Below, in pieces: positions 26,100-39,234 of a stretch of 64,000 nucleotides of DNA. The stretch is from the sequence record NC_024790.1; one strand, 5' to 3'. Source of the stretch: Escherichia phage vB_EcoP_PhAPEC7. Every line of letters starts with the position of its first letter. Positions within the stretch are counted from its first letter, which is position 1. The position numbers and the translations under genes were made by a program. The notes beneath the pieces were generated by a model. That model worked only from the letters and a program-made list of their open reading frames with translations, was not told the DNA's origin and made no database searches.

Positions 26100-26781
26100 T
26101 ATCGTGAAGGGTTCTGTCAGAATCCTTTGAGATAGGAACTCCTATCATAACCTTTCTTAACTTAATCTTTGCCGTATGGCACTGACGCTAGGGGTGGCCC
26201 CCCATCCGTCAGACAGACTATTTTAAGAATGGGTTATCTCAGAAAATGTAAAGCAACATTCGGGTTAATCAATGGCCTCTCCCTATAGGGGCCATTTCTG
26301 AATCTTAGGCTATATCCCAAAGGTTAGTATCTTTGGGATAAGGCTTCAGATCCCTTATCAAACTAACTGCTCAATGTTGAGTATATTAATTAACCCAGCC
26401 CACTAAGGGGGCGGGAGTTTAATGCCGGTAAGCATAAGCCCATCCGACTACAACATCGAAGTGTTAGGTCTTACATGCAATATAGGGTATAAAGGGAGGA
26501 TTCGTCCCCTCCCTCCTATTATGAACTATCGGAGAGTGCATTAGTTGATTAGCTGTGGAAGGTAGGCCGATGTCCACAAGTGTGGCCCAGAGCTAGTGTA
26601 CTCCCCGATAGTTTTCGTAGCGATTATGCGGTTTTTTAGAAACGAACCAATAACATAAATGCAAACGAAGAAGCGTATCTGATGGTCGCCTAACAGCGTA
26701 ACCTCAGTCAGGAGTGAGTCGTCCTGATTATCAAACGACCGTGGAGTTCTCCCGTCCATGTATTAGAAACGGGGGACCAAC

Positions 26782-27113
26782 TACCAGTTGCACGAGATGG
26801 CTTGATATGTTCAAGTTTGGACTAAGTGTGACACCGCTAGATTGGAGGGCTGCTGCGGTAAGCTATAGACTCCAACCGGAGGTTCGAATCCTTCACTGGT
26901 AACCAATTCAAAGTAGCACTGGCTCATATTAGTGGAACTCGAACCCATTGAGCAGACGAGATTAGCTAACTCTCAGTGCTACCCCTAATTGGAAGAATTA
27001 AGACGGGTCTGGTGAAGTAGATGGGGTTCAATTCCCCCCGGTGGAGTAATCCACTAGCGTGCTTGGTGCACGTATAAGACTTAGTACTGGTGGTTCGATT
27101 CCATCCCCCGTTA
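26782..27113 (+). other. Cluster of tRNA-like T-arm motifs and stable hairpins that do not fold into canonical tRNAs by hand
   Basis: Three GGTTC(G/A)A(A/T)TCC T-loop-like hairpins at 26878-26894, 27022-27038 and 27089-27105. The first is followed by ACTGGTA-A-CCA, and a perfect 7-nt partner TACCAGT lies at 26782-26788 (121 nt span). No anticodon arm found upstream of any of them. Also a GNRA-type tetraloop hairpin at 27041-27054 and a hairpin at 27058-27072. Confidence 0.3.
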
Positions 27114-27307
27114 CCTGAAGTCGCCAGGTACTTATGGCAAACGGGTAGTAACGAACTAGTCATTCGTCAAACGCCCACCCAATTATGAGTCAGCAAGAAC
27201 GCCTTCACTTAAACTTAAACAAAAAAGCTTAACGCAATGATTATGTAGGGGTATGTAAGGATTGCGAAGAAGGAGCCAGTTAGAGCCTGGCATGACTCAC
27301 CTATTAT

Positions 27308-27381
27308 GTCCGCTTAGCTTAGACTGGGAAAGCAACCGACTAATAATCGGAAGGTCACTGGTTCAAATCCAGTAGTGGACA
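27308..27381 (+). tRNA. tRNA, anticodon AAT (formally Ile); 74 nt, CCA not encoded
   Basis: Manual cloverleaf: acceptor GTCCGCT/AGTGGAC (one G-U), U8, D-stem GCTT/AAGC with G18G19, anticodon stem CCGA/TCGG with loop CTAATAA (U33, A37), T-stem ACTGG/CCAGT with loop TTCAAAT, discriminator A. Confidence 0.6.
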
Positions 27382-27840
27382 CCCATTCAGCAGTAACATA
27401 GTCCTGATTGCATAGCACTCTAAAGACAACACTGGTAAGACAGTCCAGTGGCTGCTAATGTATTGTTATTCCCCTCGACGGGAATTTCGCTGGAGAATAG
27501 GAACTACTTAAATCCTAGCCTGAGTATTGCAATATGTGACTATCAATCACGAGAGACGGGACGACCAGACCCCTGAAGCTGGCAATATTGCATATTCATA
27601 CAAGCCTCCCAGCTATGGGTAAATAGTACTAAGTCCCTCAGAGCCGTCACTCTGGGGGACTTTTTTATTTGAGCATTAATAATTGGATAATCAATATGAT
27701 TGATCTAATCTTAACCCCGTATGCCTATGAGGTAACGGATAACCGAGGATGTAAGTCTTTGGTATTTGCAGGTAGCGTAGCCTATAACAACGCAGTTATG
27801 TTTAAGTACAAACTCAAACCACTCTATGAGGCTAATAATG

Positions 27841-28863: not shown

Positions 28864-31800
28864 TTAGTTTACTAAGTTCATCCAAGGGTTCAGGTTGTGA
28901 GCACGAAGCCCTTGACCAAAGCCCCATGAGTAATCCAGCCCACCCTTAGCAGCAATGCTAAAGATGTTGTCCTGAATAGGTAAGCCAACATTACCAAACA
29001 TGGTAGGAGTTGGAGCCAGCATTGCCATTGCTGCATGTACCGGGTTGTTACGAATCATGGATACTGCAACTTTTGCAGAACGGATCTTAAAGTTGTAGAA
29101 CCACATTAAACCAACGCTTTCCATATACCCACGGAAGCGACCCGGCAGACGGTCATAGTTAATGAACTCTTCAGTTACACGTCCCAGTGCTTCTTCACGA
29201 GTCTTACCTTTACGCTGGGTCAGCTCATCATAGATGATTGCTTTAGCGATAAAGTCAGAGTACTCAACTGTCTTCTGGATACCCTGGAACAGAGCAGTAT
29301 CCTTAGTAATAAGTGCATAGCGACCAGCAGTACGTACAGACTTAGGTAACTTATCAGCCAGTTTCTCCATGTATTCGTGAAGTTTACCTTCGGTAATCAG
29401 GATGTCATCACGACCGATACCAGCATCTGCAATTGAAGAGAACTCACCTGCTTCTAACAGAGGCCATATACTCATACGCTTATGACTATCAGTAATGGAC
29501 TGAATCTCAGCCTTAAGTTTACGAATCTGGTTCGGGTTAGTAGCTGCACGTAATTCTGCTTCTGCATCTACCTGACGCAGACGAGATTTAAGGTACTGGT
29601 TAATCTCAGCAGTTTTCTGTGGAATGCTCTTAGCAATGTTCTTAACCGGTACACCACGAGCAACCATTTGGTAAAGGTTAGCCAAGAAGTTAACGGCAGG
29701 TACGACTACTGACTTAACTACAATCAGAGTCTTAGCTTCTTTAACTAAGTTCTGAACCAGGTTCTCACCACCCATTGTGTACTTATAAGCACGGTTGCCA
29801 AATACACCCAGCATAGCTTTCTTGAAGGTATCCAGTGTTTCCGGGGACCAACGAGAATTACCAGACCAAGCATCACCTACAGAAGCTGCACGATAACCAA
29901 GTGCATCATTAAGCATGTCACGACGCACCCACAATTCACCCTCACCGAACAAACTCTCTGCTTTCTGACGTGTTTCACTGTTCATCAGCTTAAGAGCATC
30001 AGCAGTTACTGGGTCCAGTTTAGAACCAAGAAGGTTAACGTACTGGGACTTATTAGAGGCAGACATCTTAATGTCATTCTCATACATGCTATGCAGGTTC
30101 TCAATCAGCATATCGTTGAAACGCTGAGCCTTAGCTTCTTCCACCTGACGACCACGCCATATACCAATTGCACGGGCAAGATGGTTCTCACCTTCAATAT
30201 GCTTCAGCATGTTAGGGTCAATGGATTGCTCATAGGCAACCACATTACCTTTATCATCATATACAGGCAGGAGTGGTTCATTACCACGTTCACCACGAGC
30301 CAGTGCTTTAGTGATACGGTCTACGGAAGGCTTGTCAGTGATACGACCAGCTACCATGGAACCCATCGTAAAGCCTGTGCCGAGGTCTACGCCACCAGCA
30401 GTATCACGAACGTTCTGTAGGATACCCTGTGAGAATGGAGCCTGTGCCTGTACCGGTGCGAAGTAGTAGCTACGTGCCGGACCACGGTTAGCAGAGCTAC
30501 CCTGATAAGTACCCAGACGTACATAAGATTTCTCAATCAAATCAGCAAACTGATTATCTTCAGCAACAATCAGATTAACACCCTGTTTGTTCTCACTAGG
30601 GATATGCCCTTTGTACTGGTTCAGGGTTGCACGCATATCAGATTTGGCTTTAGCCATTTCATCTTTACGTTGACCAACTAGATAAGAGGTAGCAAAGTCC
30701 ATCCCATCAACTTCTGTCTGAGCCAGTGAAGATAACATCTCACGGTCGGACTTGTTCATTGCTTCCAGTGCATACAAAGTAATCAGCTTATCCAGTTGAG
30801 CTACATCTACAGTAGAGCGAGCAGCCTGACGTTCACCCAGCATACGAGAGATTGCAGTAGCATTACGCAGCAGGTTATTACCGACTGTACCGTTAATCAT
30901 GTACTGAGCCAGTTGCTTAGATTTACGGTTAATCAGGGGCCAGTTACGACCAGCTTGCTTCTGCAAATCTGCTTCCAGCTTGTTCACTTCACGGTCAACA
31001 ATCTTCTGGTCAGATAGCAGGTCACGGATTTCAGCCAGAGACATGGTGTCACGCAGAACAGCTAAGTCAGTTTTACCCATACCAGTGTGCATTGCTTTCC
31101 ACTCATCGTTAGTCAGCTTACGGCTGAATTTAGATGCGATAGTAGTAGGCAGGTGTTCACGGAATTGCTGACGGTCTGCCTGTACCTGTGCACGAACTGC
31201 TTTAATCAAATCGTATACAGAAGCATTGCTCTTAGTACGACCGGTTAAGTCATTAATCAAGTCGTGGAAAGGTTGCCATACCTTACCCTGGTTCATTGCA
31301 GCCATAACACCTTCAGCTACGATTGCACCATTCTTCTCTGTAGCAATGGCAGCTACCAGTTGTGCAGCATGAGCAGCACCTTTTACTAATGGATTCTTGG
31401 TATTGGCTGCAACTTCACGAGCACTTTCTAAAGCACGGGTAGACAGTGCATCAATAGAATCCACCAGATACTGGTTAGCACGGTCGATAGCATTACCACT
31501 AGGAGTAGCAACGGAATCATAGAATGACTGTGCATTAAGGCTAGTCTGCATGATTGTCTGAGCCAGTGCATCCATACCTTCCTGTACGTTGGTAGCTTTG
31601 GTATCACCTGCTACACGGGCATTCAAACTAGACATTGCAGCAGTACCGATGTTAGTCAGCATTGCATCAACGGTATTCCCAGATTTCTTATCTGCTTTCA
31701 TAACAGGAATGTTAGCCAGTACATTACGCACCTCTTCACTTACCATTGCCAGACCAACAAAAGTAGGCAGTAAGGAAGAACGACCCTGTGCGTCAAACTC

Positions 31801-34800
31801 AATATTGTTAGCACCCATGATGGTATCGAACTTCTGTTGAGCATAGTAACGGTCAGCAGGGTTAGTACTATCTGGGTCAGCCATGAATGATTCAACGGTC
31901 AGGTTCTTAGTGACGTGTGCATAGTATTCCTGTGCACGAGAAAGAGCAGCCGGACTAATAGCAGCTTCAGTAGCCAGTGCAGCAACGATATTAGTGAACA
32001 GTCGCTGTTCCTGCATATTCATAGTGAAGCCATGAGCCTGAACATCACGAGTTACTTTAGTTGCATTCACTACTGCATCAGAGAACTTACCTTTACGAAT
32101 TACTTGCTGTACTGGTTCAGAACCAATGTAGTTAATAATCAGCTTATCAAAGGTCTGTCCCAGCTCTTCCAGACGAGTATTGTCACCATACGCCTTGTTA
32201 TGGAACAAGGTAGTGTCTTTGGATACAGCAGCCGTAGGAGCCTGTCCACGCATAACCACAGATGAGTTAAACAGTAAGCCAGAGAACATATCATCTGCAT
32301 TAGCAGGTGCTTTCTTGCGACCAAATACCAGACGTTTGATTGCCTCATATACAGACTGAACCATAGTTTTCAGTGCTGTGGTTTTCTTCTGCTTACCAAT
32401 CAGTTCACGGTTAGTTAAGCCCCAAGCCATATACTCATTCAGTGCAGCAGCTTTAGCCATTGCTGGTTCAATAAAGCCATTAGACAAGTGACCGTTAATA
32501 GTATTAAGTGCATCAGCATATGCTTCACGTACTGCCGGAGATTCATTCTTAACATCCAGAGTACGGAACTGGTTCATCAAGTCTTCAATATTCTGGATTG
32601 CTTCATTAGGAGTACCCTCATAGTGAGCCAGTACGGATTCAAAAGTGGAAGCATGTACCAATTCATGAACCAGAGTCTCTAAGGAAGAGGTAACTAAGTA
32701 GATGGTCTTATCATCAAAGTTAGTCCAGCCATATGCATTACCAGCTTCGGCAGCTTCAATATCTTTTGGTGCTGGGCGAGTAATGTTCTTCTCAATAGCA
32801 TAAGCATCCAGTTGAGCAGGAGTACCGTAAACAACCTTATAGTCTTTGGCAGCAAGGGATTTCTGTACTTCTTTCAATACTGCTTGCTGTTCAGGAGTCA
32901 TCTCTTTAGCCAGTTTAGAAATGGCAGTATTGGACAACAGACGTACACCAGACTTAAGTACACGACCAACCTGTTCCATCGCTGGTACTTCTTTCACTGG
33001 TTCTGCTTTAGCAGCACGTACTGCATTACGACGCTTATTTAATTCAGCATCAAACAGCTCGTTCAGCTTAGCTACTTGCTGGTCTACAGTCAGACCTTCC
33101 AGAGAAATTTTACCGTTATTCACATATGGAGCACCTACAGCAGCCATCTGGTCAACAGTGGTCTGTACCTGGTTCATTACTTTGTGGCGAATATCTACAC
33201 CCAGAGCAATATTACGTAGGTTACGTTCAATCTGTTCAGCACCTGCACGAAGTAAGTCATCGGTAGCACCCTCACGTTGGTCATATTCCAGAGCAGACTT
33301 AGCGATAGCCTGTTTGGTTTCATCTGACAGTTTGCTGAAGTCTACATTCTTCATGAACTTAGCGTAGGAGTCATAAACATTCTTGATAGGGTTCCCCTGC
33401 CAGGAAGTGTATACAGCCTCATTTGCTTTACGACTCGCATCAGTGATGTCGTTGATACCAATGTTCATACCATCAAAGATTTTCAGGGTATTCTTCGGTG
33501 CACCTTTCATAGTAGAAAGAGTCTGCATCATCATGCCATCACCAGTACCGATGGTCATAAATGGAATACCTGCAACACCTGCTTGTGAAGGAGCATAGAT
33601 GCTCATTGGCACACGCATACGGTCATCTAAGTTGGTAGCCAGTACTTGGTTAGCAACATCAGTATTCTCACTACCAGCAATGTAGAAAGTCTGTGAACCA
33701 GTCTCAATCATTGGAGCCAGTGGAGATAATGATTCCTGGATTTCATTCAGTTCTTTCTGTGTTAAGAAATCACCCTTCTTCCAGGTTGGGTCTTTTTCTT
33801 TTTCTGCCAACTTAGTCTGTACTGCTTGCTGGAACATATCCTGCAATACCAGAGACTGAATCTGAGTAGCCTTCTGCAAGTTCTCGGTAGAGTGCATCAG
33901 ACCTTCACCAACAGTATTACGAATACCAGTTCGCATTGGTTCAACGAACAGGTGGAGCATGTTCTCCTGTAAGTTCTTCAGGGCATTACCAGATACGGTA
34001 AATTTCTGAGGGTCTAACTTACCAGTCAGAGCACCATCTACCTGCTGAATAGACAATTCACCTTTACGCATAACTGGAACATTGCCTGTCAGTGCTTCCA
34101 TAGAAGTAAGGAAAGTATCCAGCATAGCCTGAGCATCAGCCTCAGACGCAGCCTCCTTACCAAACATTGCCATAGCTGGGGAAATGCTAGGGTCAGCAGC
34201 CCGTGCTTGCAGAACGTCACTGAAGCGTTCGTAGATGGTGTCAGTAATTGCACTGACCATCTTCCCAGCAATACCACGAGCACCGGAACCATAGATGGTA
34301 ATGGTCAGTGGGTTTTTAGCGATACCACGTTTCAGGTCCAGAGTACCATCTTCATTCAGATTAAAGTCTTTAATGAACAGGTCCATTAACTTCTGAAGAT
34401 GATTCATCTGGCTCATAACCGGAACGTTGTTACGGTAAGTAGTACGTAACTCATTTAGTGCTTGTTGCAGACCATTAGTAGATGCTTCATACAGGTCAAC
34501 ACTGTCATCCTGTGAACGATGTTCGTTCATAGTCTTACCGGCTTTACCGAAGAACAGACCACCTTTAGCAGTATTCTTAATCCAGTCTGGAGTGAACTTA
34601 CCCCCAGTCATTAATACCATTGCGTTAATCGGGCCGTTGGTTACACCATCAGCTTCAACGTACAGTGGAGTAGTAAAGTTGGCACGGTCATCACTGTTCA
34701 GGTAACGGGCATATTCCATCAGAGCCATGAGAGCTACGAAGGATTTGTCACCACCCAGGGAGGTCTTCAGAATATCTACTGCATCAGCAGGTAAGTGACC

Positions 34801-37800
34801 AGACTTATCGAACTCAACCATCATATCAACAGCAGGTTTCAGATTACCTTCCAGAGCCTTGGTCAACTTTTCAGACATAGCTTCACGGGACATGTTATGT
34901 ACCTTGATGCCTAATGCCTGAGCCAGTCCTAACTGGAAGTCAGAGACTGCTTGGCTGTTTTCATTACTCAAGTCAATAGTAGAGAAGGTTGGCAGAATTG
35001 CTTCACGAACCAGCTTACTGGATTGTGGGTTATTCTTACCTAGCATCTGCATACGACCTACACGGGTCATGTTGTAACCATAGTGAATAGGAGTATCCAG
35101 ACCATTCTCTTGTTCCCGTATCTGGCTGATTACACCAAACAAGGAATCATATGCCATAGACACGGACAGGTTTTTACCCTCCAGTGACTTAGCAGTGTTC
35201 ATATTCAACAGTTCTGGATTAAGAGAACCAGCACCCATCAGTTCCAGAATGTTGTCACGACCTAAAGCTTCATAGAAGTTAACCATCGGCATGTGTACAC
35301 GGAACTCAGTAGCTTGTTCAGCTTTCAGTGCAGCTTTCTGTTCCGGGGTATTTTTAACAGCAGGGTTACGTAACTGAGTTTGAGCCACGGAAGGAATGTC
35401 GTCACCGAAGTACATTTTCTCTTCTGGTTCTAAGAGGACAGCTTCCTCAATAGCAGTAGGGAATTTGTTAATGGCATCATTGTCATCCAGCTTCTCAATG
35501 GTATACAGACCAACAGTCTTATTAGAGTCTGGGTCAATCTCAGACACATCCAGCATAGACTCTTTAACTTCACCCATTTCAATGAGGGAAGACAGAATCT
35601 CTGTAGCCATTGCCATTGGGATACCTTTTGTGTAACCCAGTGGTGCATTAGGATTACGATTCAAACCCCAATAAGATTCAATCTTCTGAGCCAGTGAGTT
35701 AGTAGCTTCGACCAGAGTCTGGGCATTCTCAAACTCAGCCAGAATACCTTCTGGTAACAGAGATGCTTCCACACCAGTAATAGCAGCTACGTCTTTCATG
35801 TCTTTAATGGCAGCATTCTGTGTAGCAGTCAGTCGCCATTGCAGTCCGGCAAGTACAGCAGTCTCTAACAACTGATCATTGAACTTAAAGGTGTCACCAT
35901 CTCGTTCAACGATATTCAGCAATTTGCCACCTACCCAACGGTTAGCTTCAGTACCTTCTGCAAAACGTTTACCAACGTTCTTATTAGCAAGGAACTTAAC
36001 CAGACGTTCAGACAAAGTAGTCTTCAGAGTTTCCCCAAAGTCCATCAAGTCCTGATAACGTTTCATCACATCACTAGTGAGAGCGTTATTTTCTTTTTGA
36101 GTGAATGCCTCAAAGCGAGCAGCAGAAGACAGTGCTTGCTTAATATCAGCCAAAGGAGATTCAGAACCAATGGTACGGGACTTAGGTTCTTCCGGTAGGG
36201 TAAATGCTTTCAGGAACTGGTTCGGTGTCTTTTCATTGTTATAGACAGGGAACACTGTTTCCATTTCTGTTTTAGTTTCAGCTACTTCCTGGATGGTATC
36301 CTCATTAGTGAGGGTAGCTTCTACTGTTTCGGGCTTAGTAGTAGAGACTTCTTCTGCTTTTGGACTAGTCTCCTTAGTAGGAGCAGTCTTATTTTCTACC
36401 ACTGGTTTAGCTTTAGGCTGTACAGTAGTAGTGTCCTCTTGCACTGGTGCAGGAGTTTCATCAACCTGATTCACTGGTTCATTAGTCTGTTGAGACTGAG
36501 TGGCATCAAGACCACCTTGACGGAACTCTTTAACTACCTGGGCAACTGGCTTGTTCAGACGTGAATCCAACGAGGTAACTTTCACATGAGAAACATTAAG
36601 CTCCGGGTAAGCCGTAGCAAGTGCGTTAGCAATATCAGCTACGGTTTTGGCCTCCAGTCCTACTTGCTGGGCAAACTTAACAGACTTGGTATCGTAAGGA
36701 TTGACACCGAGGCCAGTACGACTACGTACCCATTCACGGGAAGGCGAGAGAGCCTGATAATGGACAGACTTATTCTTATCCGCATTCCCCGAAATCAGAT
36801 GCTCATTCAACGCTCCGACCTTATTCTGCATGTGCTGGGCGAACTTCATAAAGTCGCTCAGATAAGCGGAGGCCAAATCGAAGTTACCAGAGTTATACGC
36901 AGAACGAATGCGTTTCGCATGTTGCAACGCAGAGTACTGTCCTTCATTAGAACGAGACTCATCGGTTTTAATCTGTTTACTAACAATGTCCTGAGGACGT
37001 AAGCCCAGTTCTTCTGCTTTAGCGTCGAACTCACGTGCACCCTGTAACAAGGCAGCAGCAGATTGCAGGGCAGCACGTTGACGATTCCCTAATGTAATCT
37101 TACCTTCACTTGCATGTTTAAGAACCATGTTCACTGAATCTGCATCCAGTACTTCTGGAGACACATCAGCAGCCATAGCAATGTTGTTTGCTTGGGCTTG
37201 GTTAGCTTCTTCAGTAGCTTTCAGTTTACCTGCCTCAGCCTGTTCCTGAATCATGGAATGGATAGCACGGAATGCACGAAGTACTTTAGGGGTATTCTGT
37301 ACGTTAGCCATCAGGCCGGAGAACTGGTCTACGATTGCAGCAGCAGGGGAACCTTGTTCCAGATTAGCCAGAGCACCTGGGTCACGGTTAATGAAGTTAT
37401 CCATAGACATGATGTTGTCATACATCTGAATTGCAGCTTCCATTTGAACGTTAGGGTCTTCGGCAGTATTAACCAAGTCAGCCATCTTCTGAATAGCTTC
37501 TACACGGTTAGTGGAACCAGAAACAGCTTCACGGATTACTGGGTTAACTTGTTCCAATTCTACTGGGTCAAACTTCATTGCCTGAGTTAAATCAGCAGCA
37601 TACTGGGTAGCAGCAGCTTTCTCTTCTGGAGTGATATCCATTGCATCTACTGCTTCTTGTACAGTTGCTTGTGCTTGCTCTGCTTGAGCAGCAGCTTCCT
37701 GTGCAGCAGCATTAACCGTAGCATCAGCTACAGGGGATGCTTGTTCATTACGCTTAGCAACTTCTTCACCACGTTGAACCAGGATGTTAGTAAGGGGAGA

Positions 37801-39234
37801 TGTAGCTTTTGCTAATGTTTTACCAACCAGAGAAGCACCAGCCAGAGTAGTACGAAGAGTAGGACCAGCAGCAGCACCGGCAGCTTTAACAGTTGCACCA
37901 GGAGCCTGAGCAACACCAGCACTACCGAAGCCATAGAGTGCACCCAGACCTGCTTGCTCACCGACTCCCTTGAGGGTATCTCGGGATGCATCAACATTCT
38001 CTTTGATTGCAGTGTTTTGTGCGAACTGACCAAAGCCTGACTGAATACCTTCCTCTACAGTTTCACGCAGCATATTAGAACCAGCACCAGCCAGTGAACC
38101 TACCTTAAGTGGGTTAAGTTCAAATCGAGATACCAGTGGACCGGTAGCAGCAGCAACTGGAGCAGTTAAGCCAGCAGCAGTAATACCTGTTTCAGATGCA
38201 GTCTGACGACGTGCTTCATCAGGAGATAAACCATCAGCAATATGTTGTTGGTAAACAGGAGACTTACTTGCCAGTTCTTGATGGGACATCTTCATGATTT
38301 CAGAAGCAGTCTGTTGGTATGCACCACCAGCTTCCATGCCACCGATTGCAATAGCAGGTGCAACAACACGACCAGCAGACAATGCAACCTGTGCAGGGCG
38401 TGAACCTAATCCAGCAGCTAAGGTAATACCCTTAACAGCTTTATCACCACCTACCATTACTTTACCGAGTGCAGATACACCACGGATAAGTGGACCACCA
38501 GTAAAGAGGGAACCAACACCTTCACTAAGTCCGTCGGAAGCAGCCATACCATTATCAAGTGTATTAGCAACAGAATCGAAAGCATCACGACCAATACGAG
38601 ACAGGGAGGCAACCAAATCGCTCTCCCCGTTTTTGACATCTTGTTCATAGAGTTTCTGGTTCTTTTGAGCAGAAATCTGGTTCTGATTCTGAACAACTTT
38701 ACGAGTAGCATTCAGTGCATCAGATTGTAGATTGTGTACACCTTCATTCAACCAATCCATCCCGGAAGCAATGGATGCCCCGGCATTATCATTGACCAGA
38801 CCTGTGCCAAGAGCAGCAATGCCCCCAAGGGTATTAGCAACACCAAGACCAACACCAGAAAGAGTATCGCCAAATGCTTCTGCGTTAGTACGTTGTTTAG
38901 ATAAGTCCTGACGTACAACATCAGCAGCATTAGCTCGGCTATTAAGAATTTGTAGACCTTGCTCATTACCGTATTTATTAATGATTTCTAATGGGGAGGC
39001 TTGAGTGAAATCTGCCTGAAGTGAACCTGGTTCGAATGCACCGATTCCAAGATTACCTACTCGTCCAGTCTGGAGATTGTAAGCGTTCTCTGGGGTTAAT
39101 TGGAAAGGGCTTTGCCCTTGTGCAGCTTGCTTCTGGGAGGTTGCAGTAGAGACATCGACTTGCTTAGCATTAGTGATGCTGTCTGCGAAACCTGCCAGAC
39201 GGTCAAATGTTGACATAGCATGTTTCCTGTTCAA
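28864..39234 (-). CDS. Virion-encapsidated RNA polymerase (N4 gp50-like, 3456 aa)
   Basis: Giant ORF of N4 vRNAP size at the start of the late block. Contains a T7-like single-subunit RNAP motif B, R-x3-K-x7-YG (RGIAKNPLTITIYGSG, encoded at about 34283-34330), and a motif A-like YVEADGVTNGP. Confidence 0.85.
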   Translation of the reverse strand: MNRKHAMSTFDRLAGFADSITNAKQVDVSTATSQKQAAQGQSPFQLTPENAYNLQTGRVGNLGIGAFEPGSLQADFTQASPLEIINKYGNEQGLQILNSRANAADVVRQDLSKQRTNAEAFGDTLSGVGLGVANTLGGIAALGTGLVNDNAGASIASGMDWLNEGVHNLQSDALNATRKVVQNQNQISAQKNQKLYEQDVKNGESDLVASLSRIGRDAFDSVANTLDNGMAASDGLSEGVGSLFTGGPLIRGVSALGKVMVGGDKAVKGITLAAGLGSRPAQVALSAGRVVAPAIAIGGMEAGGAYQQTASEIMKMSHQELASKSPVYQQHIADGLSPDEARRQTASETGITAAGLTAPVAAATGPLVSRFELNPLKVGSLAGAGSNMLRETVEEGIQSGFGQFAQNTAIKENVDASRDTLKGVGEQAGLGALYGFGSAGVAQAPGATVKAAGAAAGPTLRTTLAGASLVGKTLAKATSPLTNILVQRGEEVAKRNEQASPVADATVNAAAQEAAAQAEQAQATVQEAVDAMDITPEEKAAATQYAADLTQAMKFDPVELEQVNPVIREAVSGSTNRVEAIQKMADLVNTAEDPNVQMEAAIQMYDNIMSMDNFINRDPGALANLEQGSPAAAIVDQFSGLMANVQNTPKVLRAFRAIHSMIQEQAEAGKLKATEEANQAQANNIAMAADVSPEVLDADSVNMVLKHASEGKITLGNRQRAALQSAAALLQGAREFDAKAEELGLRPQDIVSKQIKTDESRSNEGQYSALQHAKRIRSAYNSGNFDLASAYLSDFMKFAQHMQNKVGALNEHLISGNADKNKSVHYQALSPSREWVRSRTGLGVNPYDTKSVKFAQQVGLEAKTVADIANALATAYPELNVSHVKVTSLDSRLNKPVAQVVKEFRQGGLDATQSQQTNEPVNQVDETPAPVQEDTTTVQPKAKPVVENKTAPTKETSPKAEEVSTTKPETVEATLTNEDTIQEVAETKTEMETVFPVYNNEKTPNQFLKAFTLPEEPKSRTIGSESPLADIKQALSSAARFEAFTQKENNALTSDVMKRYQDLMDFGETLKTTLSERLVKFLANKNVGKRFAEGTEANRWVGGKLLNIVERDGDTFKFNDQLLETAVLAGLQWRLTATQNAAIKDMKDVAAITGVEASLLPEGILAEFENAQTLVEATNSLAQKIESYWGLNRNPNAPLGYTKGIPMAMATEILSSLIEMGEVKESMLDVSEIDPDSNKTVGLYTIEKLDDNDAINKFPTAIEEAVLLEPEEKMYFGDDIPSVAQTQLRNPAVKNTPEQKAALKAEQATEFRVHMPMVNFYEALGRDNILELMGAGSLNPELLNMNTAKSLEGKNLSVSMAYDSLFGVISQIREQENGLDTPIHYGYNMTRVGRMQMLGKNNPQSSKLVREAILPTFSTIDLSNENSQAVSDFQLGLAQALGIKVHNMSREAMSEKLTKALEGNLKPAVDMMVEFDKSGHLPADAVDILKTSLGGDKSFVALMALMEYARYLNSDDRANFTTPLYVEADGVTNGPINAMVLMTGGKFTPDWIKNTAKGGLFFGKAGKTMNEHRSQDDSVDLYEASTNGLQQALNELRTTYRNNVPVMSQMNHLQKLMDLFIKDFNLNEDGTLDLKRGIAKNPLTITIYGSGARGIAGKMVSAITDTIYERFSDVLQARAADPSISPAMAMFGKEAASEADAQAMLDTFLTSMEALTGNVPVMRKGELSIQQVDGALTGKLDPQKFTVSGNALKNLQENMLHLFVEPMRTGIRNTVGEGLMHSTENLQKATQIQSLVLQDMFQQAVQTKLAEKEKDPTWKKGDFLTQKELNEIQESLSPLAPMIETGSQTFYIAGSENTDVANQVLATNLDDRMRVPMSIYAPSQAGVAGIPFMTIGTGDGMMMQTLSTMKGAPKNTLKIFDGMNIGINDITDASRKANEAVYTSWQGNPIKNVYDSYAKFMKNVDFSKLSDETKQAIAKSALEYDQREGATDDLLRAGAEQIERNLRNIALGVDIRHKVMNQVQTTVDQMAAVGAPYVNNGKISLEGLTVDQQVAKLNELFDAELNKRRNAVRAAKAEPVKEVPAMEQVGRVLKSGVRLLSNTAISKLAKEMTPEQQAVLKEVQKSLAAKDYKVVYGTPAQLDAYAIEKNITRPAPKDIEAAEAGNAYGWTNFDDKTIYLVTSSLETLVHELVHASTFESVLAHYEGTPNEAIQNIEDLMNQFRTLDVKNESPAVREAYADALNTINGHLSNGFIEPAMAKAAALNEYMAWGLTNRELIGKQKKTTALKTMVQSVYEAIKRLVFGRKKAPANADDMFSGLLFNSSVVMRGQAPTAAVSKDTTLFHNKAYGDNTRLEELGQTFDKLIINYIGSEPVQQVIRKGKFSDAVVNATKVTRDVQAHGFTMNMQEQRLFTNIVAALATEAAISPAALSRAQEYYAHVTKNLTVESFMADPDSTNPADRYYAQQKFDTIMGANNIEFDAQGRSSLLPTFVGLAMVSEEVRNVLANIPVMKADKKSGNTVDAMLTNIGTAAMSSLNARVAGDTKATNVQEGMDALAQTIMQTSLNAQSFYDSVATPSGNAIDRANQYLVDSIDALSTRALESAREVAANTKNPLVKGAAHAAQLVAAIATEKNGAIVAEGVMAAMNQGKVWQPFHDLINDLTGRTKSNASVYDLIKAVRAQVQADRQQFREHLPTTIASKFSRKLTNDEWKAMHTGMGKTDLAVLRDTMSLAEIRDLLSDQKIVDREVNKLEADLQKQAGRNWPLINRKSKQLAQYMINGTVGNNLLRNATAISRMLGERQAARSTVDVAQLDKLITLYALEAMNKSDREMLSSLAQTEVDGMDFATSYLVGQRKDEMAKAKSDMRATLNQYKGHIPSENKQGVNLIVAEDNQFADLIEKSYVRLGTYQGSSANRGPARSYYFAPVQAQAPFSQGILQNVRDTAGGVDLGTGFTMGSMVAGRITDKPSVDRITKALARGERGNEPLLPVYDDKGNVVAYEQSIDPNMLKHIEGENHLARAIGIWRGRQVEEAKAQRFNDMLIENLHSMYENDIKMSASNKSQYVNLLGSKLDPVTADALKLMNSETRQKAESLFGEGELWVRRDMLNDALGYRAASVGDAWSGNSRWSPETLDTFKKAMLGVFGNRAYKYTMGGENLVQNLVKEAKTLIVVKSVVVPAVNFLANLYQMVARGVPVKNIAKSIPQKTAEINQYLKSRLRQVDAEAELRAATNPNQIRKLKAEIQSITDSHKRMSIWPLLEAGEFSSIADAGIGRDDILITEGKLHEYMEKLADKLPKSVRTAGRYALITKDTALFQGIQKTVEYSDFIAKAIIYDELTQRKGKTREEALGRVTEEFINYDRLPGRFRGYMESVGLMWFYNFKIRSAKVAVSMIRNNPVHAAMAMLAPTPTMFGNVGLPIQDNIFSIAAKGGLDYSWGFGQGLRAHNLNPWMNLVN

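Follow-up and report, generated by a model that had tools for sequence, protein, structure and literature searches.

A cluster of conserved stable RNA modules in an N4-like Escherichia phage, including a tmRNA-like tag module with an arm complementary to host tmRNA

The 64,000-nucleotide (nt) stretch analysed here, referred to below as the window, comes from Escherichia phage vB_EcoP_PhAPEC7 (NC_024790.1). We have concentrated on a region of about 1.5 kb, between positions 26100 and 27660, which an earlier note made from the sequence alone had described as free of open reading frames (ORFs), rich in structure and furnished with one tRNA gene and several tRNA-like fragments. The region is a mosaic stable-RNA cluster composed of recombining modules and closed by an intrinsic terminator. 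It contains a tRNA-Ile gene, two tRNA-like RNAs that we term X1 and X2, and a module at 26598-26779, termed M3, which was overlooked in the earlier note and which resembles the tag-encoding part of transfer-messenger RNA (tmRNA). The region matches 154 phage records, the top matches being Gamaleyaviruses (G7C-like N4-like podoviruses) with overall identities of 90-95% for the best of them (PhAPEC5 95%, Mimir124 93%), and on sequence similarity the window is itself a Gamaleyavirus of the G7C/PhAPEC5-like type. Conservation of the region is far above chance, and its sub-modules are found in other phage families.

The tag module M3

The components of M3 are as follows; loci used for comparison are given L numbers throughout.

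26598-26779, plus strand: M3, tmRNA-like module
26605-26639, plus strand: antisense arm CCGAUAGUUUUCGUAGCGAUUAUGCGGUUUUUUAG, complementary to E. coli tmRNA nt 67-109 (RNAduplex, blastn)
26640-26660, plus strand: linker AAACGAACCAAUAACAUAAAU, directly 5' of the resume codon, with U at -5 and A at -4 as in E. coli tmRNA
26661-26693, plus strand: tag frame GCA AAC GAA GAA GCG TAT CTG ATG GTC GCC TAA, encoding ANEEAYLMVA and a stop
26679-26707, plus strand: helix-5-like hairpin with the stop codon in its loop; outer stem CUGA/UCAG, inner stem CGC/GCG
26708-26739, plus strand: H-type pseudoknot with stems S1 (26708-26712/26723-26727) and S2 (26718-26721/26736-26739)
26749-26779, plus strand: terminal hairpin 3 (HP3), with a 7-bp stem CUCCCGU/ACGGGGG and a conserved 13-nt loop, followed by A-CCA

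The tag frame begins at a GCA resume codon, and no start codon (ATG, GTG or TTG) lies between this codon and the in-frame stop TAG at 26637-26639. The linker aligns to the consensus ccaUAAAu-GC of the Rfam families beta_tmRNA and tmRNA_permuted, and its GAAAC..ACCA sequence is invariant in 53 sequences. The -5U/-4A context is the key frame-setting determinant in E. coli tmRNA. A permissive Rfam scan returned weak matches to tmRNA_permuted (26592-26693, 23.1 bits, threshold 47) and to beta_tmRNA (26640-26740, 16.7 bits, threshold 84), both below the gathering threshold, in which 'ACAUAAAU-GCAAACGAAGAAGCG..AUGGUCGCCUAA' and the pseudoknot that follows are aligned with the two-piece tmRNA consensus. 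Such sub-threshold matches recur at the same spot in five phages, spanning the pre-resume context, the tag and the downstream pseudoknot, with scores of 23-32 bits for tmRNA_permuted (best 31.9) and 14-23 bits for beta_tmRNA (best 23.2). The E. coli tag, ANDENYALAA, which we confirmed on ssrA in locus L158, is of the same length as the M3 tag.

Across loci we recovered 143 copies of M3 representing 36 alleles of the frame and 22 tag peptides, all of exactly ten codons; one pattern match reading ANI followed by a stop was excluded from these counts, as it did not align to M3 outside the pattern. Tags in relatives include ANDDVVLMAA (ending in GCA GCC, GCT GCT or GCG GCG), ANDDVVLMVA and ANNETYLMVA, and these synonymous and conservative changes indicate that the tag frame is preserved. 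Among the 26 pairs of alleles that differ by a single nucleotide, 15 differences are synonymous, compared with 22.8% expected (p=1.3e-4), and 16 fall at third codon positions; the stop is never gained or lost and the replacements are conservative. M3 tags are under peptide-level (coding-type) selection.

The structure of M3 was assessed in 53 diverse copies for helix 5, both pseudoknot stems and HP3. In these helices 89.9% of cells are paired, compared with 31-51% when the strands are slid against each other, 13 of 20 pairs have changed on both sides, and compensatory cells number 143 as against at most 29 in the slid controls. The outer A:U pair of helix 5 is replaced by G:C in 24 of the 53 sequences, seven of the nine pseudoknot pairs show changes in both partners (cells paired in the two stems: 97% and 86%), and all four HP3 pairs scored covary (4/4), HP3 being joined to X1 at a mosaic breakpoint around 26774-26783. 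In anatomy and in the selection acting on it, M3 corresponds to the mRNA-like domain (MLD) of a tmRNA. Three further candidates were rejected: a pseudoknot upstream of the tag (GUUUUC/GAAAC and GGU/ACC), whose pairs are invariant and which competes with the antisense reading given below; pairing of the HP3 loop with the pre-resume linker, for which the apparent covariation failed in P1; and a second tag at about 27170-27230, AHPIMSQQERLHLNLNKKA followed by a stop, suggested by ARAGORN at low stringency but lacking a tmRNA-like context.

M3 has no tRNA-like domain (TLD). At default settings ARAGORN reports no tmRNA, either in the window or at any of 110 distinct M3 loci, and Rfam matches to M3 never extend past the tag region. 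The module has neither a T arm nor an acceptor stem of its own, position 3:70 of HP3 is C:G, and HP3 with its ACCA forms at most a 7-bp minihelix; we rejected the latter as a minimal acceptor, since several relatives lack the CCA and HP3 of the majority type has only 4 bp. Nor did we accept that the apex of the stem preceding M3 conceals a TLD, as the apices are non-homologous and contain no T arm or CCA, and as some phages start M3 at a promoter: the ~47-kb siphoviruses have a TTGACA-17-TAGATT promoter whose end lies 7-8 nt 5' of the first conserved nucleotide of M3. The G3:U70 acceptor pair is an alanine identity element, and a scan of all loci for a T arm followed by N7 and NCCA with G3:U70 found nothing in the window and nothing common to M3 loci, yielding only an element of the type found in phage KP8, a few tRNAs and chance pairs. 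The KP8 element, annotated as 'tRNA-OTHER' (L011:1417-1491; also in L020 and L028), is a 75-nt tRNA-like RNA with the acceptor stem GGGCAGU/ACUGUCC, G3:U70, A73 and an encoded CCA, in which a 6-bp stem with a tetraloop replaces the anticodon loop. It lies ~330 nt upstream of the KP8 M3 and, judged by these features, looks like a stand-alone Ala-accepting TLD. A tRNA-Arg(UCU) beside another M3 copy (L091:7757-7833) also has a G3-U70 wobble (GCGCCAT/ATGGTGC).

The most conserved part of M3 5' of the tag, GAUAGUUUUCGU..GCGAYUWUGCGG.UUUUUAG (26605-26639), is the reverse complement, with small indels, of nt 67-107 of E. coli tmRNA. This target consists of GUAAAAAGCCGC, which is the 3' part of host pseudoknot 1 (PK1), AAAAAAU, and AGUC-GCA AAC GAC GAA AAC UA, the last of these covering the linker, the resume codon and the first five codons. 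With blastn, minus-strand matches to ssrA 68-106 were obtained for all eight of eight diverse variants, most of them aligning over 37-41 nt at 72-78% identity, with the window copy (68% over 50 columns, ssrA 57-106) and the phiMAM1 copy (21 nt only) at the extremes. Whole-molecule comparison of M3 and ssrA with RNAduplex is uninformative on long sequences, and we used instead the arm only, from 109 distinct M3 copies, against E. coli ssrA 60-115 with 30 shuffles per copy. The mean free energy (dG) of the arms is -35.8 kcal/mol, compared with -16.2 for shuffled arms and -19.5 for pairing with the tag region of M3 itself; all 109 copies beat all 30 of their own shuffles, and when full-length ssrA is used, the start of the optimum invariably falls at nt 60-69. 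For the window arm the corresponding values are -33.6 kcal/mol and a shuffled mean of -13.9. The predicted complementarity is extended, conserved and confined to a single site, the properties by which an antisense RNA against tmRNA would be recognised. Arms of the window type lack the complement of CAAACG, a stretch common to host and phage tags, and this absence, together with the divergence of phage codons 3-6 from those of the host, may minimise self-annealing. Short matches complementary to ssrA nt 236-244 (CCUGAUUA and UGAUUAA) occur at 26723-26730 in the window and in the HP3 loops of the majority type, that is, at different places in the two M3 types and at a level expected by chance for their length (E about 4); they are possibly a second tmRNA contact.

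M3 is widely distributed. Its core matches 327 phage records, in all of which it is unannotated, and its carriers include N4-like phages, Ackermannviridae (Vi01, Det7, phiMAM1), Salmonella phage 7-11, the ~47-kb siphoviruses, lambdoid phages and P1. A strict pattern scan of IMG/VR located M3 at over 120 loci, of which many are late-gene leaders of prophages, and the same type of scan over species-representative genomes gave only three plausible matches, in Enterobacterales. P1-like plasmids carry M3 in 561 of 5426 complete E. coli genomes, where PGAP annotates nothing at the site. In P1 itself (L038:1091-1375; record positions 68791-69075) M3 lies in the leader of the C1-controlled ban operon, directly after an annotated 'dicF-like region', and ~270 nt of stem-rich sequence separate it from tRNA-Asn and tRNA-Thr downstream. 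In lambdoid-type prophages (IMG/VR loci L045, L101, L071 and L039) its place is the leader of the late operon, with a tR'-like terminator on one side and the holin gene on the other. Here the surroundings, examined from about -200 to +480 around the tag, contain repeated long stems, ACAACAGGUAAGAGCAUUG / CAGUGCUCUUUCCGUUGU, that flank M3 and have hypervariable apices, sometimes with T-arm-like hairpins, and a closed domain GUGGUG...CACCAC lies downstream.

The tRNA gene, X1, X2 and the layout of the cluster

The other features of the locus are listed below.

26100-26523, plus strand: left non-coding block, hairpin-rich, ending in the junction motif CCTATTATG (alignment of 18 loci)
26524-26613, plus strand: upstream stem, in which 26524-26539 pairs with 26598-26613, with its apex at 26540-26597 (compensatory changes)
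26782-26905, plus strand: X1, 124-nt tRNA-like RNA (covariation, 15 distinct copies)
26913-26982, plus strand: stem cassette GUAGCACUG/CAGUGCUAC with a variable apex, between X1 and X2 (read from the sequence)
27002-27115, plus strand: X2, 114-nt tRNA-like RNA (covariation, 21 distinct copies)
27116-27307, plus strand: conserved non-coding block, Gamaleyavirus only, ending in the junction motif CACCTATTATG
27308-27381, plus strand: tRNA-Ile, anticodon AAU with A34 (ARAGORN; Rfam RF00005)
27382-27630, plus strand: conserved non-coding block, part of it common to Klebsiella Kaypoctaviruses
27631-27669, plus strand: intrinsic terminator, a 13-bp stem (27631-27662) followed by a T run, closing the cluster
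28864-39234, minus strand: virion RNA polymerase (vRNAP), 3456 aa

The single tRNA gene reported in the earlier note is the only RNA gene that either ARAGORN or Rfam calls in the 64 kb. It is a genuine tRNA, with 62.4 bits against RF00005 (gathering cut-off 29); its CCA is not exactly encoded, the sequence being ACCCA. The AAT anticodon had been singled out as unusual for its A34, which is correct: the gene is present in 15 loci in which the anticodon loop CUAAUAA is invariant, while both the acceptor stem and the anticodon stem (CCGA/UCGG to CUGA/UCAG in the latter) show compensatory changes. An independent tRNA-Ile(AAU), on the unrelated phage contig L104, has an identical anticodon loop, and this, together with the invariance of the loop, indicates that A34 is a selected feature. 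Evasion of anticodon nucleases has been proposed for phage tRNAs (PMC10264068); A34 might serve such evasion, or might be deaminated. In two relatives a tRNA of 73-76 nt with a 6-nt anticodon loop and an encoded ACCA stands in tandem with tRNA-Ile (L001:3208-3283 and L003:3001-3073); ARAGORN reports it as tRNA-??? with a 2-nt 'anticodon', and it is annotated as tRNA-OTHER or tRNA-Thr. The window has one tRNA gene where these loci have two, and its gene aligns to both. Bas96 contains an 85-nt 'tRNA-Val' (L004:3413-3497) that ARAGORN does not call at default settings, with an acceptor stem and T arm as in the window tRNA-Ile and a different, expanded anticodon region.

The three T-arm-like hairpins that could not previously be completed into cloverleaves are present at 26878-26894, 27023-27037 and 27089-27105. 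They belong to X1 and X2, conserved RNAs with structures other than the cloverleaf, so that of the explanations offered for them in the earlier note that of a different structured RNA is borne out. Introns fare less well, since the intron mode of ARAGORN finds no intron-containing tRNA in the region and calls at reduced thresholds are noisy and mutually inconsistent; nor do the hairpins appear to be remains of degenerate tRNAs, because their covarying helices are kept across genera and, in X2, across phage families.

X1 consists of a 7-bp acceptor stem, a D-loop-like linker, a hairpin at 26799-26817, the T arm at 26878-26894, a discriminator A and an encoded CCA, and it has no anticodon arm. 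As had been noticed earlier, its A-CCA end (3' strand 26895-26901, A26902, CCA 26903-26905) has a perfect 7-nt partner far upstream, at 26782-26788. In an ungapped alignment of 15 distinct copies, taken from loci of Gamaleyavirus and of Klebsiella Kaypoctavirus, the proportion of paired cells is 99.6%, compared with 27-43% with slid partners. Both members have changed in five pairs, of which three belong to the acceptor stem and one each to the hairpin 26799-26817 and the T stem. The acceptor strands occur in relatives as TACCAGT/ACTGGTA, TATCAGT/ACTGATA and TACTGGT/ACCAGTA, and these compensatory variants indicate that a pairing spanning ~120 nt is not due to chance. The interior of about 60 nt is invariant, and a candidate pseudoknot within it (ACCGC/GCGGU and UUGGAG/CUCCAA) is without covariation signal. 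ARAGORN does not call X1 in either its ordinary or its intron mode, no Rfam model detects it, and the Rfam tRNA model gives no match even at E<=10. Its position 3:70 is C:G in the window, and it is absent from most M3-bearing phages, including P1 and the Vi01-like, lambdoid and siphovirus types. A standard or permuted tmRNA that used the T arm and ACCA of X1 as its TLD was considered and rejected, as the 3' strand of X1 covaries with 26782-26788 and the tag lies outside this stem; no complementarity between M3 and X1 was found.

X2 has a five-helix fold with a 6-bp acceptor stem, a D-loop-like linker, a hairpin at 27023-27037 formed by a 4-bp stem with a T-loop sequence, hairpins at 27041-27054 and 27058-27072, a conserved unpaired stretch GACUUAGUA, the T arm at 27089-27105 and ACC at the 3' end, again with no anticodon arm. 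The alignment of 21 distinct copies includes T4-like ones, from VR5, VR25, PEi20 and a contig of IMG/VR; paired cells make up 98.9% as against 44-59% in slid controls, 14 of 25 pairs show double changes, and the observed value is reached by none of 500 shuffles. ARAGORN does not call X2 with or without introns, and there is no Rfam tRNA match at E<=10. The homologue in VR5 (L010:2484-2596), which is unannotated, lies between tRNA-Met and tRNA-Arg, and others are found in VR25, PEi20 and L013. All three T4-like variants keep G3:U70 while the 2:71 pair varies; N4-like copies lack G3:U70, the 3:70 pair of the window X2 being C:G. X1 and X2 both combine an acceptor stem and a T arm with a D-loop-like linker and lack the anticodon arm; in this they resemble the TLD of tmRNA more than they resemble a tRNA, and they could be TLD-like decoys or partners.

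T4 species 1 (rnaC) and species 2 (rnaD) RNAs, the function of which has been puzzling for some 50 years, are likewise stable non-tRNA RNAs inside a phage tRNA cluster, where they are annotated next to tRNA-Arg, and rnaC resembles X1 and X2 in having at its end a T arm that a terminal stem closes. There is nevertheless no detectable sequence homology between these RNAs and X1, X2 or M3: nhmmer searches with rnaC and rnaD gave matches in T4-like loci only and none in the window, X1, X2 or M3, and we rejected X1 and X2 as their homologues. The T4-like phages with X2 also carry rnaC and/or rnaD homologues, which makes X2 a separate family. X1 and X2 thereby extend the puzzle of the T4 RNAs to other phage families.

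In annotated relatives the cluster is flanked by gp45 (SSB), gp46 and gp47 on one side and by gp48, gp49 and gp50 (vRNAP) on the other. This gene order and the location of the polymerase on the minus strand indicate that the region is the end of a rightward-transcribed block. No prominent sigma-70-type promoter was found in the cluster, as expected for N4 middle transcription, and the PhAPEC5 and G7C records annotate the closing terminator. Pairwise comparison with ~30 related loci revealed fixed breakpoints at ~26004/26069, 26523, 26595-26607, 26697 and 26774-26783 in the left half, and at 26913-26928, 26972-26985, 27102-27118, 27300-27308 and 27373-27395 in the right half, at which modules are swapped, absent or present among relatives; a gp48-anchored IMG/VR search for the region gave five loci. 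The extra tRNA or tRNA-like genes of relatives sit at these breakpoints, for example tRNA-Ala(CGC) 5' of M3 in St11Ph5, and a 'tRNA-Cys' with a 67-nt mini tRNA-like RNA 3' of M3 in UE-S5a and PhAPEC5.

The left block is confined to Gamaleyavirus loci, with a variable cassette at ~26380-26460. Most of its columns are invariant across the 18 aligned loci and the predicted hairpins are thus without covariation signal, the hairpin at 26493-26517 being the only one with compensatory changes. Positions 26100-26300 are almost invariant although the flanking genes differ by 7-10%, which, to judge from the alignment, implies strong constraint; several stable hairpins are predicted there. The upstream stem is a cassette of the type that flanks M3 in many phages. 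It shows compensatory changes (CTATC/GATAG to CCATC/GATGG, GG/CC to AA/TT, GTAC/GTAC to GCAC/GTGC), and its hypervariable apex is non-homologous between phages, with at least nine unrelated sequences. The stem at 26913-26982 resembles the CAGUGCUC cassettes flanking M3 in other phages, and its apex is common to PhAPEC5 only and partly to L094. A motif, (C)ACCTATTATG, recurs directly 5' of tRNA or tRNA-like modules and at mosaic breakpoints (26514-26523 and 27297-27307 in the window; ~2630 and ~2768 in KP8, L011) and could be a processing, promoter or recombination signal. In G7C an HNH homing endonuclease gene, gp47.1 (L031:594-1091), is inserted at the left edge of the cluster and may drive its mosaicism, recalling segB of the T4 tRNA cluster. 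The tRNA clusters of T4, T5 and KP8 are similarly mosaic, with a homing endonuclease nearby, and consist of tandem, co-oriented, closely spaced modules with encoded or near-encoded CCA ends and canonical tRNAs; unlike in those clusters, only a single module here is a decodable tRNA, the others lacking an anticodon arm or not being tRNA-like.

M3 and its proposed action on host trans-translation

Trans-translation is the main bacterial pathway of ribosome rescue and quality control, and it affects the growth of several phages. We favour a reading, to which we assign a probability of roughly 0.55, in which the region is a rightward stable-RNA cluster of tRNA-Ile(AAU), X1, X2 and M3, together with about 900 nt of conserved non-coding sequence, and M3 anneals to host tmRNA and substitutes or blocks its tag. 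M3 would be released from a polycistronic precursor by processing at the flanking tRNA-like elements. Since it is followed directly by X1, cleavage by RNase P at X1 would set its 3' end, in the window ..ACGGGGG-ACCA. It would then anneal to host alanyl-tmRNA over the start of the coding region, masking the host resume codon and offering the phage frame instead to ribosomes rescued by the host TLD and SmpB, and the products of stalled ribosomes would receive a phage tag ending in MVA, MAA, AVA or VAA rather than in LAA. The C-terminal LAA of the host tag is the part recognised by ClpX, and given these differences at the C terminus the fate of the tagged proteins would probably change. In a weaker version M3 would just block host tagging. 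Blocking needs the arm only, whereas in the template version the frame, the -5U/-4A context, helix 5 and the pseudoknot would all be maintained because the phage frame is used.

Several points weigh against this proposal. Annealing and template substitution are steps that we infer from the sequence, and we know of no precedent for a tethered second RNA serving as a trans-translation template. Complementarity was assessed against E. coli ssrA only. Nine nucleotides of the arm (26605-26613) also belong to the 3' strand of the upstream stem, so that the arm would be partly sequestered unless this stem is cleaved or opened, and the predicted duplex would have to displace part of host PK1. The allele pairs in the selection test are not phylogenetically independent, and the segment of M3 upstream of the tag and the interior of X1 are invariant, so that folds there are without covariation support.

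It is conceivable, if rather doubtful, that M3 is purely an antisense inhibitor of host tmRNA, or a guide for RNase III, which would shut down tagging or trans-translation in the infected host, and that its tag frame is the untranslated leftover of an ancestral tmRNA. Complementarity to ssrA 67-107 would alone suffice for such a function, M3 has no TLD, and a TLD-only tmRNA fragment of mycobacteriophage DS6A, reported to inhibit tmRNA, provides a precedent for phage interference (PMC4131195). This explanation does not account for the fixed length of ten codons in 22 variants, one of which has compensating 6-nt indels, for the universal stop codon and the synonymous excess, or for the retention of -5U/-4A, helix 5 and the pseudoknot 3' of the arm. 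It is unlikely that M3 works independently of host tmRNA as one half of a split tmRNA, the other half being a phage tRNA-like RNA (X1 or X2 here, the Ala-type RNA in KP8, other cassettes elsewhere). Such an arrangement would fit X1, which directly abuts M3, has ACCA at its end and a D-loop-like linker, and is without an anticodon arm, as well as the G3:U70 pair in T4-like X2 copies, the 75-nt G3:U70 RNA with its tetraloop in KP8 and the fact that the best Rfam similarity of M3 is to two-piece tmRNAs. In the window, however, X1 and X2 have C3:G70 rather than G3:U70; X1 holds both acceptor strands, M3 contributing none, shows no complementarity to M3 and is missing from most M3 phages; and the anti-ssrA arm is left unexplained.

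Simple decay of a tRNA cluster, with X1, X2 and the hairpins as pseudo-tRNAs, the tmRNA resemblance as a captured fragment of host ssrA and only tRNA-Ile functional, seems very improbable. The region is indeed highly mosaic, with tRNA genes that come and go at fixed junctions in relatives and a homing endonuclease inserted in G7C, and tRNA finders reject X1 and X2. Yet every tested helix of X1, X2 and M3 is maintained by compensatory substitutions, conservation of X2 extends from N4-like to T4-like phages and that of M3, which is under coding-type selection, over unrelated phage families, and the host tag is never found among the phage tags. Moreover, ssrA fragments on integrating elements derive from the 3' end of ssrA and not from the tag region (PMC9004378). 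The region is a cluster of selected RNA genes and not a graveyard of odd tRNAs. That it encodes small proteins is an explanation to which we give almost no credence. The earlier statement that no ORF exceeds 60 aa on either strand needs correction, as there are three mechanical ORFs:

26541-26759, minus strand: ORF of 72 aa
26714-26902, plus strand: ORF of 62 aa
26966-27163, minus strand: ORF of 65 aa

In addition, some depositors annotated 9-13 small coding sequences over the homologous region, including 'hypothetical proteins' of 30-45 aa in Mimir124 and Bas96. None of the three ORFs has a Pfam match, however; they run across covarying RNA helices, indel junctions and segments that are replaced by non-homologous sequence in relatives, which makes the region effectively non-coding. 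Substitutions in M3, X1 and X2 track base-pairing and not these frames, and other annotators of the same sequence call almost no coding sequence.

Compared with known systems, M3 is closest to tmRNA, especially to the two-piece, circularly permuted tmRNAs of Betaproteobacteria (RF01850, RF04321), with which it shares a start-less GCA frame encoding AN(D/E)(D/E)...(A/V)A, of ten codons as in E. coli. The pre-resume sequence ..UAAAU-GCA, the stop codon in the helix-5 loop and the H-type pseudoknot, which in some variants has a 'GUUACCAAA'-like loop, are further points of likeness. Unlike tmRNA, M3 has no TLD and no G3:U70, contains a single pseudoknot plus hairpins and scores below Rfam thresholds; unlike any tmRNA it carries an arm antisense to host tmRNA, and its tags never end in LAA. 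Phage-borne tmRNAs have hitherto been thought to be rare and complete. Derivatives of trans-translation RNAs are carried by cluster C mycobacteriophages, Bacillus phage G and marine myophages such as Melnitz, which have complete tmRNAs, and by DS6A; these known phage tmRNAs are complete (TLD and MLD, detected by ARAGORN) or TLD-only, while M3 is the reverse, an MLD with an antisense arm. DS6A has only the TLD half of tmRNA, reported to inhibit host tmRNA (PMC4131195; PMC11915505; PMC9004378). The surveys of phage tmRNAs describe complete or TLD-only genes only (PMC4131195; PMC11915505; PMC9004378): one names mycobacteriophages, Bacillus phage G and DS6A, with 79 phage sequences counted in a 2025 update, and an ARAGORN-based survey lists tmRNA in 402 of 18,146 phage genomes, with two-piece forms that are almost all marine. 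These surveys report nothing in Enterobacterales phages, the group in which M3 is found. Phage antisense or 'anti-sRNA' regulators of host RNAs, such as AgvB and AsxR of enterohaemorrhagic E. coli prophages and the dicF-like region of P1, offer a second comparison. Anti-sRNAs of the AgvB/AsxR type also pair with an abundant host non-coding RNA; M3 differs from them in its presumed target, tmRNA, in a predicted duplex of ~30 bp that far exceeds seed pairing, and in the fusion of its arm to a surrogate coding module.

No description of M3, X1 or X2 was found in openly accessible full text, M3 is also absent from Rfam 15, and we regard all three as undescribed. More tentatively than the proposal above, M3 may represent an RNA class of its own, a TLD-less surrogate MLD that docks by ~30 bp on the host alanyl-tmRNA-SmpB complex, supplies a phage tag (..LMVA, LMAA, LAVA, MVAA) and alters protease targeting, with X1 and X2 as TLD-like RNAs acting on the same pathway. 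The conserved complementarity points to a previously unrecognised and very common interaction of phages with host trans-translation: M3 is unannotated in spite of its occurrence in P1, in ~10% of complete E. coli genomes via P1-like plasmids and in several genera of therapeutic phages. If the proposal is true, this would be the first virus found to hijack or re-template tmRNA; it would explain part of the 'dark' non-coding DNA beside phage tRNA genes, and would provide a handle on tagging and proteolysis during infection and, possibly, on defence systems that act by ribosome stalling. On a minimal reading there are three conserved RNA families (M3, X1 and X2) for annotation pipelines, with which dozens of spurious 'hypothetical proteins' and some 'tRNA-OTHER' entries can be corrected. 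Over the homologous region in Mimir124 (L023) and Bas96 (L004), for example, the depositors' 9-13 'hypothetical proteins' range from 30 to 70 aa, and an automated pipeline has labelled the gp48 and gp49 homologues in Mimir124 and 24-32N as 'anti-CRISPR protein'; these small proteins and labels are probably over-annotations.

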